A program made the position numbers and the translations under genes. From the NCBI GenBank assembly GCA_964386785.1, contig CAYLUD010000002.1:1-55712 (forward strand): 55,712 bases of DNA. Reading direction: 5' to 3'. This DNA comes from an uncultured bacterium. GTDB taxonomy: Bacteria > Chlamydiota > Chlamydiia > Chlamydiales > JAAKFR01. The notes under the pieces are model-generated. The model searched no databases, was not told the origin of the DNA, and worked only from the letters and a program-made list of their open reading frames with translations. Numbering within the stretch: position 1 is the first letter of the stretch; each line of letters begins with the position of its first letter. Below are positions 38,901 to 41,150 of this stretch, piece by piece.

Positions 38901-41150
38901 CTTTCACGACATATGCGCATCTATAATCTACGTGGAGACGAGATAGAAACGCGAGCCCACCTATTTCGAAACGGTTATTTAGAGTCTATCCGCTCCGTGC
39001 ACAAGCAATATGACCCTTTAGGGAACTGCATTACGAGAGTGGAGGAGGGAGGTCGTACCTATCATTTTCGTTATTTAGGAGAGCACGTCATTGAAACAAT
39101 TAACCCTAACGGGGAGCAGGTACTCTACGACTATGATGGATTAGGGCGTTGCATTCGCTGTCGAGGTCCTTCAATTGAACATACCTGGGGCTATGATCTG
39201 TTAGGCCATCTGGTGCTGTTAGAGGACCGGCTGCAAGGGTTGCGCCTGTCCCGCCGTTACACTCCTCAAGGCTCCCTATTGGAAGAAATCTTTCCTTTCG
39301 GAAAAATCCAACATCGCTATGACGAGTTAGGGCGTCGTATAGAAACCATCCTTCCTGATGGATCTAAAGTAGGATACCAATACGAAGGCTCTCTTTTGAA
39401 GAGTTGGGGAAGAGGAACGGACAAGGTGGTATATACGCGACGCAATCTGAGTGGCTTACCAATAGAGATGGAAACACCTTATGGCTCTCTCTCTATTAAA
39501 AGGGATGCTTTAGATCGTCCTCTACACCTATCTCATCCCCATATACATCTGGCATGGAACTACGATCTTGCGGGGCGCCTCACCTCCCAACAGCGTAATG
39601 AACAGCATATAGACTATCTATATGATGAGCTCGATCAACTCATGCAAGAGGAGGGTCATTCGTACCGTTGGGACTCGCTACACCAACCTTATGAAAAAGA
39701 TGGACAACCTCTTGTATGTAATTCGCGGTATGAATTGATTTCGTACAATTTTCATCCCCTCGCATATGATGCAACGGGTCGCCTGACTGTTTCTGGAGAG
39801 ACGCGTTATCAATACGACGGGCTAAACCGCCTGATTGCTACCGAAGGCGCTCAAGGGAAAACAGAATATAGGTACGACCCCCTCCACCGCAGGATATCTA
39901 AGAATAGCAAGGGAAAAATTGTGTATTTTCTTTGGGATGGGGATGAAGAGATCGCCTCTTTGGATTCCAAGGGAAAACTCATTGAGTTACGCCTTCTAGG
40001 AGAAGGGCTCCATGCGGATCGCGCGAATGGCTGGCTCTACGAAATACAAGGTAAAAAGTATGGGGGGATAGAAGATCTGCAAGGCTCTCTGATCATGTTA
40101 TCAGATGGCAAAAAGCGATCTATGACCCAATTCAGTGCCTTTGGCGAAGGGTTACCTCTTACCTCTTGGGGGTTTGCTTCTAAGCGTAGGGATCCAGAAA
40201 GTGGATTGATTTACTTTGGCAGGCGATACTATGCTCCCGAATGGATGCGCTGGATCACTCCGGATCCGCTAGAAGATGTGGATGGCCCCAACCCTTATGC
40301 TTATGTACATAATCATCCCCTCACTCATTATGATGCGTATGGACTGATTGATGGGGCTGAGCATTTTACTCCTGGTCCTCGTTTTCTATTTGAATGCATT
40401 GAATGGACGGGAGCGAACCTGGTACCGATTCCTTATCTACAAGGCGGAATAGAATCGGTAGGGCGTTGGGGGGCTAATGGAGGCTTATTTGCCCCTAGTC
40501 GATACCGAACGCCAAAAAATGAGATTCTTTCTATTGCAGGTGAAGCGATCCCAGGATACATTCTTACCTACGGTAATGGAATGATGACACGAAAAGACCA
40601 AGCCTATCAGCAAGGTCTTTCCTTATCCAAGGCTGCTAACGGGGCTCCGATCGATGTACTGTACCATGGAACTAATGGTTTGATTATGGATTTAGCTTCT
40701 GCAGTGTGGTCCAAGCTTGGAAGATCGACGCCCTACACGAAATTATGTGTAGACTATTACAAAGAGAAGCTGGCCGACCCGAATCAGAAGGCCTTTATTA
40801 CCCTACACAGTCGAGGAGGCACTCAGTTTATGAATACCGCGAAGATACTGAAACAAGACACCTTACTAAACCGCATGGATGTACGCACCTATGGATCCGC
40901 AACCCTGATTCCCAATGGCTCCTTTCACTCTGCCATCAATTTTGCTAGCGTCATCGACTGTGTCTCTATGACCAATCCTATTGCCTATTTGATGGGGTGC
41001 TGGGGCAAGCATTATGATTTAAGAATACTAACACCTACTAGTTTTAACCCACTCAAAGAGCATGGGATTCAAGAAACTACATATGCAACAAATGCGAATA
41101 ATCAAATGTCTCTTTTTTTTCCGAATCAGAATTACGGAACATCGCCATGA
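35973..41150 (+). CDS. RHS/YD-repeat cage protein with N-terminal signal-like peptide and variable C-terminal toxin-like domain
   Basis: 1725 aa. Hydrophobic N-terminus MWKLLILSLSVVRALIA. Plug-like VNVVTGAYSTSHMDLSIAG. Many YD repeats (YEYDSLGRCI, YRYDGWGHIL, WVYDRAGRVL, HTYDTLGRLS, YQYDNAGKPT, YDYDGLGRCI, HRYDELGRRI, YQYDGLNRLI, YRYDPLHRRI). Core-terminating GLIYFGRRYYAPEWMRWITPDPL...NPYAYVHNHPLTHYDAYGL. Confidence 0.9.
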   Translation: MWKLLILSLSVVRALIAENFLQSESLPASIKADYFLNDSLNEFVTSRDLGIEDRVNVVTGAYSTSHMDLSIAGIQPLQASRFYWSDVPYESRYGGWLYNPESRVTANLEWKDRKKFISIAEPQGAIHSLEEHSGHTFRFHTPKTMMSRGGAHHPSLLRIEYSKCGDTKNSHRWRYEGKIISGDGSERYFQSPMHSWLHRVEWTERTGSIWGGGSSLHYVATPNVWTPYQLPLTEEKLANGNRYRYHYLNWNEPKAYPTPGVIQRIESYSSQGEPLGFLEWDYHRNKKEEVDRVTVRGSDRRCSTLHYQEGHLVSVQSSGQPTSSYRYHNHLLVEQIEQGIPLRIEYDDQNRVSRLLAPVGNQGEFAPVMQYQYSSGMTQQTDGTGAIVRIQMDANQRILAREEWAQGRIARRESYVWQDQTGLLTEERVDNGAGKTYLSRYYEYDNSFNPIQIRWGQGQEWRSIHQRFSTEGRNLLLSRWEEGGLRHEYRYVPGTNLLAFEGIYEGNQLRVRHFYTYDGAGFCTESIEDDGTGELPNDLRGVTYRRKEKWFRKGGIPCCGLPIRKESWSLDLSGQEILLGAEEFQYTPAGLMTEHRFFDDQGRYVYSHYFQYDDQELCIMERRPEGGERYFSYDASHRLLAVQGPNPEEEIRYEYNAMGLPICTQQHIGGQSWISTSRLYNRRGDRLQEVDPAGQVTTFLWDDLGREVAILYPDGGKYERQYDVLDRCIEEKDPLGFVTKSHYNVFGDLTLKEYPDRRQERFEYDSLGRCIFHENILGAVHTYRYDGWGHILEEKVIDRSGVLLRHIQKEWSPFFQISETEGERVRKWVYDRAGRVLTEIDGNHTKHHTYDTLGRLSVIKEGDIELVTEYDLCNRPLKKSTLYRGTLQHRVSYQYDNAGKPTRVDEGERSTHTVYWANHQPHRITDGVGATTIQYTEYAGGHRDITIDPLGRRKEIWYDPCNRPCREDRYDAHDVLLSRHMRIYNLRGDEIETRAHLFRNGYLESIRSVHKQYDPLGNCITRVEEGGRTYHFRYLGEHVIETINPNGEQVLYDYDGLGRCIRCRGPSIEHTWGYDLLGHLVLLEDRLQGLRLSRRYTPQGSLLEEIFPFGKIQHRYDELGRRIETILPDGSKVGYQYEGSLLKSWGRGTDKVVYTRRNLSGLPIEMETPYGSLSIKRDALDRPLHLSHPHIHLAWNYDLAGRLTSQQRNEQHIDYLYDELDQLMQEEGHSYRWDSLHQPYEKDGQPLVCNSRYELISYNFHPLAYDATGRLTVSGETRYQYDGLNRLIATEGAQGKTEYRYDPLHRRISKNSKGKIVYFLWDGDEEIASLDSKGKLIELRLLGEGLHADRANGWLYEIQGKKYGGIEDLQGSLIMLSDGKKRSMTQFSAFGEGLPLTSWGFASKRRDPESGLIYFGRRYYAPEWMRWITPDPLEDVDGPNPYAYVHNHPLTHYDAYGLIDGAEHFTPGPRFLFECIEWTGANLVPIPYLQGGIESVGRWGANGGLFAPSRYRTPKNEILSIAGEAIPGYILTYGNGMMTRKDQAYQQGLSLSKAANGAPIDVLYHGTNGLIMDLASAVWSKLGRSTPYTKLCVDYYKEKLADPNQKAFITLHSRGGTQFMNTAKILKQDTLLNRMDVRTYGSATLIPNGSFHSAINFASVIDCVSMTNPIAYLMGCWGKHYDLRILTPTSFNPLKEHGIQETTYATNANNQMSLFFPNQNYGTSP
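40347..41147 (+). other. C-terminal 267-aa domain of the RHS protein, downstream of the ...YDAYGL core boundary; candidate alpha/beta-hydrolase (lipase/esterase)-type toxin
   Basis: Motifs occur in the order expected for an alpha/beta-hydrolase: LTYGNGMMT (oxyanion-loop-like), ITLHSRGGTQF (nucleophile-elbow-like, compare GHSxGG / GFSRG), later YGSATL and KEHG. Boundary coordinate checked against the DNA (GGA CTG | ATT at 40341..40349). Confidence 0.5.

Follow-up and report, generated by a model that had tools for sequence, protein, structure and literature searches.

A predicted serine alpha/beta-hydrolase toxin domain at the end of a chlamydial RHS protein, and its candidate exported partner

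The window analyzed here, the 55,712-nt contig CAYLUD010000002.1 (assembly GCA_964386785.1) of an uncultured chlamydia, carries a gene for a long rearrangement hotspot (RHS) protein whose last 267 residues, referred to as the tail, very probably form a toxin cargo of the alpha/beta-hydrolase type that is catalytically competent and has a cognate exported partner, judging from sequence comparisons and a structural model. Four independent lines of evidence, namely profile similarity, weak Pfam matches, structure prediction followed by Foldseek searches, and the order of the conserved residues, support a serine alpha/beta-hydrolase fold of the lipase/esterase-like type. A preliminary description of the same DNA had proposed such a hydrolase with a Ser nucleophile, which is borne out by profile matches to the lipase LipA, by the predicted structure and by a strictly conserved Ser155.

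Predicted catalytic residues and fold of the tail

Residue conservation was counted in an alignment of 141 family members that are ~20–50% identical to the window tail. Four residues, G78, S155, D204 and H239, are invariant (141/141 each), and N77 (133/141), D115 (137/141), H154 and G157 (both 134/141) are nearly so. The translation of 40347-41147 starts exactly after the core motif PLTHYDAYGL and contains all four motifs listed in the preliminary description, i.e., ILTYGNGMMTRKDQA (residues 71–85), AFITLHSRGGTQF (149–161), MDVRTYGSATL (177–187) and PLKEHG (235–240). The first of these had been read as oxyanion-loop-like and following a beta-strand, and the invariant G78 of the predicted oxyanion-hole turn indeed comes after strand 71–76. 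The predicted nucleophile S155 sits between strand 148–154 and helix 156–168 of the AlphaFold2 (AF2) model. H239 in PLKEHG, already picked out as the histidine candidate, follows strand 225–228 and is preceded by Asp or Glu in 130/141 members. The acid had been sought in MDVRTYGSATL, but D178 is an Asp in just 21/141 sequences, and the invariant acid is D204 (VIDCV), located after strand 195–201. Conservation and model together support a predicted Ser155-Asp204-His239 triad and an NG oxyanion turn, in canonical order and positions.

Across the family the elbow has the consensus AHSxGG. The position filled by Leu in the window is occupied by A in 104 members, V in 12, G in 8, S in 6, C in 3 and L in 2, so that the atypical Leu highlighted earlier is real in the window but represents a rare variant and not a family trait. 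Upstream of the hydrolase core, the N-terminus of the tail carries a pre-domain motif, IEWxGxNLxPxP...ExxGRWxxGG (consensus of sub-alignment A3), and in many family members the match to the profile begins only at about position 80. For residues 1–55 AF2 predicts two helices at low confidence (predicted local distance difference test, pLDDT, 41–51); this segment could be a linker or an element for membrane interaction or translocation.

With a 31-sequence alignment, AF2 returned a model of alternating strands and helices with a mean pLDDT of 82.6 and a predicted template modeling score (pTM) of 0.78, the means of 10-residue blocks ranging from 86 to 97 across residues 61–260. Structure prediction had been suggested as a check for a non-hydrolase fold; the Foldseek search of this model against PDB gave 63 matches at E≤1e-3, and all of the best 50 of these 63 are alpha/beta-hydrolases. 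The PDB matches comprise PETases/cutinases, lipases, dienelactone hydrolases, thioesterases, a dipeptidyl peptidase and the Legionella effector RavL. Among the viral predicted structures in BFVD, 22 matches were obtained, and those with a name are mostly esterases or alpha/beta-hydrolases. The top match is an unnamed protein (E=4.8e-12) and the best named one is a DUF676 phage protein (E=3.7e-8), with class-3 lipases and PGAP1-like proteins of giant viruses at lower ranks. The closest predicted-structure neighbors of the tail are viral (A0A248SJP8, M1I878, A0A6J5L7G1 and several Yasminevirus proteins) and outscore every PDB entry; several of them come from giant viruses.

At the sequence level, the window tail alone matched nothing in Pfam (no match at E≤1), NCBIfam or PDB sequences, and matches of the single-sequence search to citrate synthase, SpoIID and CFAP68 (E>0.01) were discarded as noise. 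A profile of 30 family members, in turn, ranked the LipA-type minimal lipases of Bacillus first among PDB sequences (6nkc, E=1.8e-4; 1i6w, 7.5e-4; range to 9e-4), and 59 of the best 60 matches are lipases, cutinases, esterases, an unspecified alpha/beta-hydrolase or a thioesterase. The alignment with LipA places the family's AHSqGG on AHSMGG (Ser77) and, in a second, weak stretch, NYvSrrD on NYLSRLD, the segment that we take to hold the catalytic D133 of LipA. Direct comparison with hhalign gave a probability of 94.5% (E=8e-8, 81 columns), using a LipA sequence that agrees with 2qxt/5ct4-type chains over the compared stretch.

Weak Pfam matches were surveyed among 30 diverse family members. 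Lipase_3 was matched by nine of them (best E 9.7e-5), DUF900 and DUF676 by four each (best E 9.3e-6 and 2.8e-4, respectively), Cutinase and Abhydrolase_6 by three each (0.0012 and 0.056), Tle3 by two (0.018) and LCAT by one (0.032). Thioesterase and Palm_thioest were matched as well, and almost all of these families are of the alpha/beta-hydrolase type. The elbow had been likened to those of PGAP1-, DUF676- and Tle1-type lipases; the DUF676 part of this comparison stands, with weak Pfam and BFVD matches, but DUF2235, the Tle1 family, was not matched. The closest recognizable relatives of the tail appear to be minimal and class-3-type lipases together with DUF676/DUF900 esterases, so that ester hydrolysis of a lipid would be its most likely activity. 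That the substrate is a glycerophospholipid or another lipid is, in our estimate, an even bet.

A serine alpha/beta-hydrolase toxin could instead attack a non-glycerolipid substrate, such as peptidoglycan or lipopolysaccharide/lipid A esters, lipoprotein acyl chains, acyl-protein thioesters or peptides, which we consider rather unlikely. Thioesterases, dienelactone hydrolases, PETases/cutinases and the dipeptidyl peptidase have Foldseek E-values similar to those of the lipases, thioesterase families occur among the weak Pfam matches, and the exported partner described below would be compatible with any envelope target. In addition, one of the RHS-linked alpha/beta-hydrolase families of Zhang et al. 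2012 (PMC3482391) has no specific lipase link. However, lipases take the top ranks, almost to the exclusion of other enzymes, in the profile searches, whose specificity exceeds that of fold searches, and the Pfam families found most often are Lipase_3, DUF900 and DUF676, which favors a lipase-like activity.

A decayed or non-catalytic tail that resembles hydrolase motifs by coincidence is very improbable. Such a remnant might lack Pfam, NCBIfam and PDB sequence matches, as the window tail does; an AF2 run with 6 sequences only gave a pLDDT of 39.7, and several homologous loci from long-read metagenomes are fragmented. Yet the open reading frame (ORF) is intact over 1725 aa, all four catalytic positions that are invariant in the family are kept in the window, and the alpha/beta-hydrolase fold of the 31-sequence model contradicts decay.

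The RHS carrier and its partner gene

The carrier has the repeats, the core ending in PxxxxDxxGL and the variable C-terminal domain of RHS/YD-repeat polymorphic toxins. Pfam RHS_repeat (PF05593) matches in 11 stretches (E=1.1e-45) and DUF6531 at aa 53–104, and the NCBIfam matches are YD_repeat_2x, RHS_core and Rhs_assc_core, the repeats reaching E=3.2e-32 with TIGR01643 and Rhs_assc_core (TIGR03696) lying at aa 1397–1458 (E=1.7e-19). The core ends with ...NPYAYVHNHPLTHYDAYGL, and the tail begins at the very next residue, the boundary reading ...HPLTHYDAYGL followed by IDGAEHF. By analogy with other RHS proteins, this motif presumably marks where the tail is released by autoproteolysis. Relatives that share the same RHS core have tails that are only 45–52% identical to that of the window, or unrelated. 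No PAAR, VgrG or other Pfam domain was detected in the RHS protein, except for a faint Teneurin YD-shell match. The G/C content of the gene (0.45–0.47 compared to ~0.44 for the window) and its composition gave no clear island signal.

Over nearly its full length, the RHS protein is 30–36% identical to RHS ORFs of three Chlamydiales metagenome-assembled genomes (MAGs; L005, L008 and L006). The L005 and L008 orthologs have canonical signal peptides at their N-termini (MKKFLLFFFALTLPLSIFA and MRKKILLSILITLSLSLSIFA, each followed by E), and the N-terminus of the window protein looks like a Sec signal peptide as well, in agreement with the Sec-signal RHS protein in a chlamydia put forward in the preliminary description.

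Table 1. Features of the RHS toxin locus, in window coordinates.
Feature	Position	Strand	Remarks
RHS polymorphic-toxin gene, complete	35973..41150	+	one intact ORF, 1725 aa plus stop codon (ORF list, translation)
Putative Sec signal peptide, MWKLLILSLSVVRALIA before ENF	35973..36023	+	read from the sequence; cleavage site a heuristic guess
RHS-associated core end, aa 1397–1458	40161..40346	+	boundary motif PxxxxDxxGL (HPLTHYDAYGL); TIGR03696
N-terminal 55 residues of tail, helical pre-domain motif	40347..40511	+	conserved in part of the family
Alpha/beta-hydrolase core of toxin domain, tail residues 56–267	40512..41147	+	pLDDT, Foldseek and profile matches
Predicted oxyanion-hole turn N77-G78 (GNGM)	40575..40580	+	codons verified
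Nucleophile elbow H154-S155-R156-G157-G158	40806..40820	+	codon of predicted nucleophile S155 at 40809-40811
D204, predicted catalytic acid	40956..40958	+	VIDCV
H239, predicted catalytic histidine	41061..41063	+	PLKEHG
Candidate cognate immunity gene, 184 aa	41147..41701	+	ATG overlaps toxin TGA (ATGA); signal-peptide-like N-terminus

The gene that overlaps the toxin stop codon encodes the candidate immunity protein. A homolog of ~30–35% identity lies immediately 3′ of the toxin tail in 8/8 close loci (L001–L008), several of which hold 2–4 tandem copies. L001, L002 and L005 hold orphan remnants of the toxin, and behind each of these lies one more partner gene; the remnant at 9684-10952 of L005 is a typical orphan rhs-CT, in which the end of an RHS core is fused to a partly deleted tail. 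Inside the window no orphan toxin or immunity copies were found. A profile search with the partner detected 80 relatives, none of them with a name beyond "hypothetical". Six carry an organism label, in each case a Chlamydiales MAG, and four of the six stand in a row in a single MAG. The window protein and nine homologs had no significant Pfam match, and the family has no relative in PDB. All partner homologs share a basic n-region, a hydrophobic stretch of 12–15 residues and a polar mature start, YREPxYCK, and the homolog in L006 carries a lipobox, LTSC. The toxin and its partner appear to form a canonical polymorphic toxin/immunity arrangement, with neutralization itself being predicted.

A promoter scan found fewer promoter-like sites at the locus than in shuffled sequences, and a terminator scan revealed no convincing terminator after the toxin/partner pair. 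The homologous RHS genes of L001 (3589-9002) and L002 (3598-8798), both from ENA long-contig metagenome assemblies, are split into many short called genes, reflecting either pseudogenization or frameshift errors in the assemblies. Transposase genes (DDE_Tnp_1, DDE_3 and IS66) are located just downstream in L001.

Distribution of the family and relation to known systems

A word-indexed protein search with the tail retrieved five close relatives of 45–52% identity, two of which are named beyond "hypothetical protein" (RHS repeat-associated; one from a Chlamydiia MAG). A profile of the tail and these five, searched without a word index, detected 1288 proteins at E≤1e-3 among 1.84 billion cluster representatives, each standing for a cluster at 50% identity, and 591 at E≤1e-10. 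In 148 of 154 family proteins (the best 150 of the 1288 plus earlier matches) the domain lies within 25 residues of the C-terminus; these proteins are mostly 1400–2000 aa long, and RHS repeats are present in those scanned. No family member tested reaches a Pfam model, and the family is without a Pfam, NCBIfam or structural representative, confirming the suspicion that the tail is not covered by a catalogued family.

Genome searches with two sub-alignments gave 6 and 79 loci, i.e., 85 in total. Most of them belong to Chlamydiota MAGs (Chlamydiales, Parachlamydiaceae, Waddliaceae, Protochlamydia and Parachlamydia), the exceptions being one MAG labeled Bacteroidetes and 14 whose titles read just "uncultured bacterium" or "bacterium". 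For the Bacteroidetes-labeled locus (L043, JABDGV010000003.1), a mistake in binning or labeling is conceivable, as is a true family member in another phylum. The locus search of GTDB genomes with the tail as the only query gave no relative, and tblastn searches of plasmids with the tail and one member of the AHSIGG clade (see below) gave no match. The tail appears to represent a large family that is in no catalogue and that turned up in this analysis only in Chlamydiota; it might coincide with the known Tox-ABhydrolase-2 or -3 domains, for which Pfam has no model.

The 79 loci of the sister clade with the elbow AHSIGG (L009–L087, e.g., L014, L021, L022, L029, L054, L061 and L078), mostly from Chlamydiota MAGs and spanning Parachlamydiaceae, Waddliaceae and Protochlamydia, likewise contain long RHS ORFs that end in the hydrolase. 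Their neighbors are housekeeping genes, and a gene for a metallo-beta-lactamase-fold protein lies downstream in seven loci, so that these toxin genes seem to occupy a conserved place in the chromosome and not to form a mobile cassette. In three family proteins (P0094, P0099 and P0107) a eukaryote-type Ser/Thr protein kinase domain is located C-terminal to the hydrolase: P0094 has the hydrolase at 118–326 and the kinase at 516–763, and P0099 and P0107 consist of RHS repeats, the hydrolase and then Pkinase. The ORF at 592-5214 of L075 continues for 448 aa beyond the hydrolase. The kinase-bearing members would be two-enzyme RHS cargos, which hints at a host-directed use.

The window hydrolase could instead be a host-directed effector acting on lipids or proteins of amoebae or other eukaryotes (e.g., inclusion or vacuole membrane lipids), with the partner serving as a periplasmic self-protection factor or export chaperone. 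We regard this as unlikely, if somewhat less so than a non-glycerolipid substrate. The producer is a chlamydia and taken to be obligately intracellular (type III secretion genes sctU, sctV and copN in the window; its IspG closest to those of Chlamydiota MAGs), a conserved partner gene is missing from the AHSIGG clade, kinase domains follow the hydrolase in some members, and RavL is among the structural matches. Intracellular bacteria such as Waddlia were moreover found to encode many toxins and hardly any immunity proteins, and the Tox-ABhydrolase-2 protein of a Parachlamydia, which lacks an immunity gene, is read as host-directed (Zhang et al. 2012, PMC3482391). In the clade of the window, however, the partner is coupled to the toxin in 8/8 loci, partner paralogs occur in tandem, orphan rhs-CT fragments are followed by more partner genes, and another MAG has an array of four partner genes; such arrays are not expected of a simple export chaperone. 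The wider family may include host-directed effectors, with the window clade being the one that behaves as an interbacterial toxin.

Among known systems, the pair resembles in its logic the lipase effectors of type VI secretion systems (T6SS). The effectors Tle1 (DUF2235), Tle2 (Lipase_3), Tle3 and Tle4, with their Tli immunity proteins, are likewise alpha/beta-hydrolases with a GxSxG-type Ser-Asp-His site. They are antibacterial, and their adjacent immunity genes encode exported (periplasmic or lipoprotein) products, implying envelope action from the periplasmic side; the window pair would be alike in these respects. Unlike Tle proteins, the window toxin sits in an RHS shell with a Sec signal on the carrier and without PAAR or VgrG, and no T6SS gene is present among the 20 other window ORFs scanned. 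The tail itself matches none of the Tle1–Tle4 models in Pfam, DUF2235 is absent among the 30 family members, whose Tle3 and Lipase_3 matches are weak, and the candidate immunity protein of the window, in contrast to Tli, is unrelated to any catalogued family.

Among RHS toxins, the Sec-dependent RHS/YD contact-dependent toxins, such as WapA of Bacillus subtilis, share with the window protein the Sec signal, the RHS/YD shell, the variable C-terminal toxin, the downstream immunity gene with orphan modules and the independence from T6SS. WapA is wall-anchored in a monoderm and has tRNase toxins and cytoplasmic immunity proteins, whereas the window producer is a diderm chlamydia with a predicted hydrolase cargo and a putative exported immunity protein. 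B. subtilis LipA and the family I.4 minimal lipases (1i6w, 6nkc), the best profile match, are small (~180–200 aa) and lid-less with an A-H-S-x-G-G elbow, like the tail. Only the 81 columns align, with ~25% identity there, and Lipase_2 is not among the Pfam families matched, so that the similarity does not extend over the whole domain as in family I.4; LipA is also a free secreted enzyme, whereas the tail is a toxin cargo. The DUF676/PGAP1-like/DUF900 putative serine esterases share an HSxGG-type elbow with the tail.

RHS and other polymorphic toxins with C-terminal toxin domains of this fold have been described before, the domains being named Tox-ABhydrolase-1, -2 and -3 (Zhang, Aravind et al. 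2012, PMC3482391). Type 1 corresponds to DUF2235/Tle1, which the window tail does not match; type 3 is lipase-like and closest to 1lgy; and type 2 is said to occur chiefly in proteobacteria and fungi, whereas the loci of the window family that carry a phylum label are chlamydial except for the Bacteroidetes one. The partners of these domains (SUKH, Imm66 and Imm69) have no signal peptide, and the window partner and its nine homologs match none of them in Pfam. The same study lists Sec ("T2SS")-routed RHS toxins in chlamydiae, which it regards as poor in immunity genes and not competing with conspecifics. The preliminary description had seen a new combination in the window, but both RHS proteins with an alpha/beta-hydrolase toxin and Sec-dependent chlamydial RHS proteins had thus already been described computationally.

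The remainder of the window supports a chlamydial origin, with no close GTDB species representative. Its IspG is most similar to those of Chlamydiota MAGs (50–55% identity), followed by Verrucomicrobiota (~45%). A type III secretion block at 10679-15100 (+), comprising sctU (FlhB/YscU family), sctV (FHIPEP) and a CopN/HrpJ-type gatekeeper, is situated ~21 kb upstream of the RHS gene, and nothing evident connects the two. The scanned ORFs are housekeeping or type III secretion genes and include BamA, IspG, glycogen phosphorylase and an RND efflux system. Pfam gave no match for three ORFs: one of 810 aa (26016-28448, +), one of 144 aa just upstream of the RHS gene with a C-terminal pair of hydrophobic segments (35140-35574, -), and one of 153 aa downstream of the immunity gene, which is coiled-coil, acidic and of low complexity (41986-42447, +). 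The 144-aa and 153-aa ORFs have no counterpart in the related loci L001–L087.

Proposed mode of action and implications

From the gene structure, the fold, the conserved triad, the linkage of toxin and partner and the orphan copies, we infer a course of events that covers cleavage, lipid substrate, neutralization, delivery route and target cell. The RHS protein would be exported by Sec, and its 1458-aa RHS part (signal peptide, DUF6531, YD repeats and Rhs-associated core) would form a shell enclosing the tail, as in other RHS proteins. Autoproteolysis after ...YDAYGL, for which RHS/TcC proteins provide the precedent, would free the tail, and the compact (~200-aa) esterase with its Ser155-Asp204-His239 site could then attack an envelope or membrane lipid by phospholipase or lipase action. 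The translationally coupled, exported partner would most likely bind and neutralize the hydrolase outside the cytoplasm, protecting the producer and its kin. This location follows from the export signal of the partner: if neutralization takes place outside the cytoplasm, so should the action of the toxin, the same reasoning as for Tle lipases and their periplasmic Tli proteins. By the same analogy, the site of action may be the periplasm or envelope of other chlamydiae.

Several observations weigh against this model. The Foldseek TM-scores of the PDB matches are just 0.4–0.55, indicating no close solved relative, and the best E-value in the PDB sequence-profile search is ~1e-4, so that both the structural and the lipase similarity are remote. 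Thioesterases, peptidases, acyltransferases and deacetylases have the alpha/beta-hydrolase fold, too, and a lipid substrate of the tail is therefore not established. The signal peptide of the window's own partner (...ILFSIMSLCLSW...) is less canonical than those of its homologs. In the 79 AHSIGG-clade loci, hidden Markov model and jackhmmer searches with the partner family found no conserved downstream partner, a situation that fits host-directed effectors better than interbacterial toxins. Finally, a periplasmic RHS protein of an obligate intracellular bacterium needs a route to another cell.

On balance, we still think it somewhat more likely than not that the locus encodes, as a whole, a Sec-exported, T6SS-independent RHS polymorphic toxin with an envelope-acting, lipase-like cargo and an exported immunity protein. 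With respect to the target, we lean slightly towards another bacterium rather than the host. The fuller proposal, in which tail and partner are two uncatalogued families, found here only in Chlamydiota, that together form a Sec-dependent, T6SS-independent and envelope-acting interbacterial weapon, is tentative, and we would not yet bet on it. If true, obligate intracellular chlamydiae would fight each other within shared hosts or inclusions, and the sister clades without immunity genes, some of them fused to kinases, would have been redeployed against the eukaryotic host.

The mechanism as such is not new, since alpha/beta-hydrolase cargos of RHS toxins are already familiar, as are lipase effectors paired with periplasmic immunity. 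The novelty lies in the hydrolase family itself, together with an equally uncatalogued family of exported partners. With S155, D204 and H239 as defined residues, the tail offers an easily testable enzyme for studying cargo delivery by an RHS cage that is exported by Sec and does not rely on a T6SS. The coupled pairs, orphan modules and immunity arrays argue that at least some environmental chlamydiae engage in bacterial warfare.

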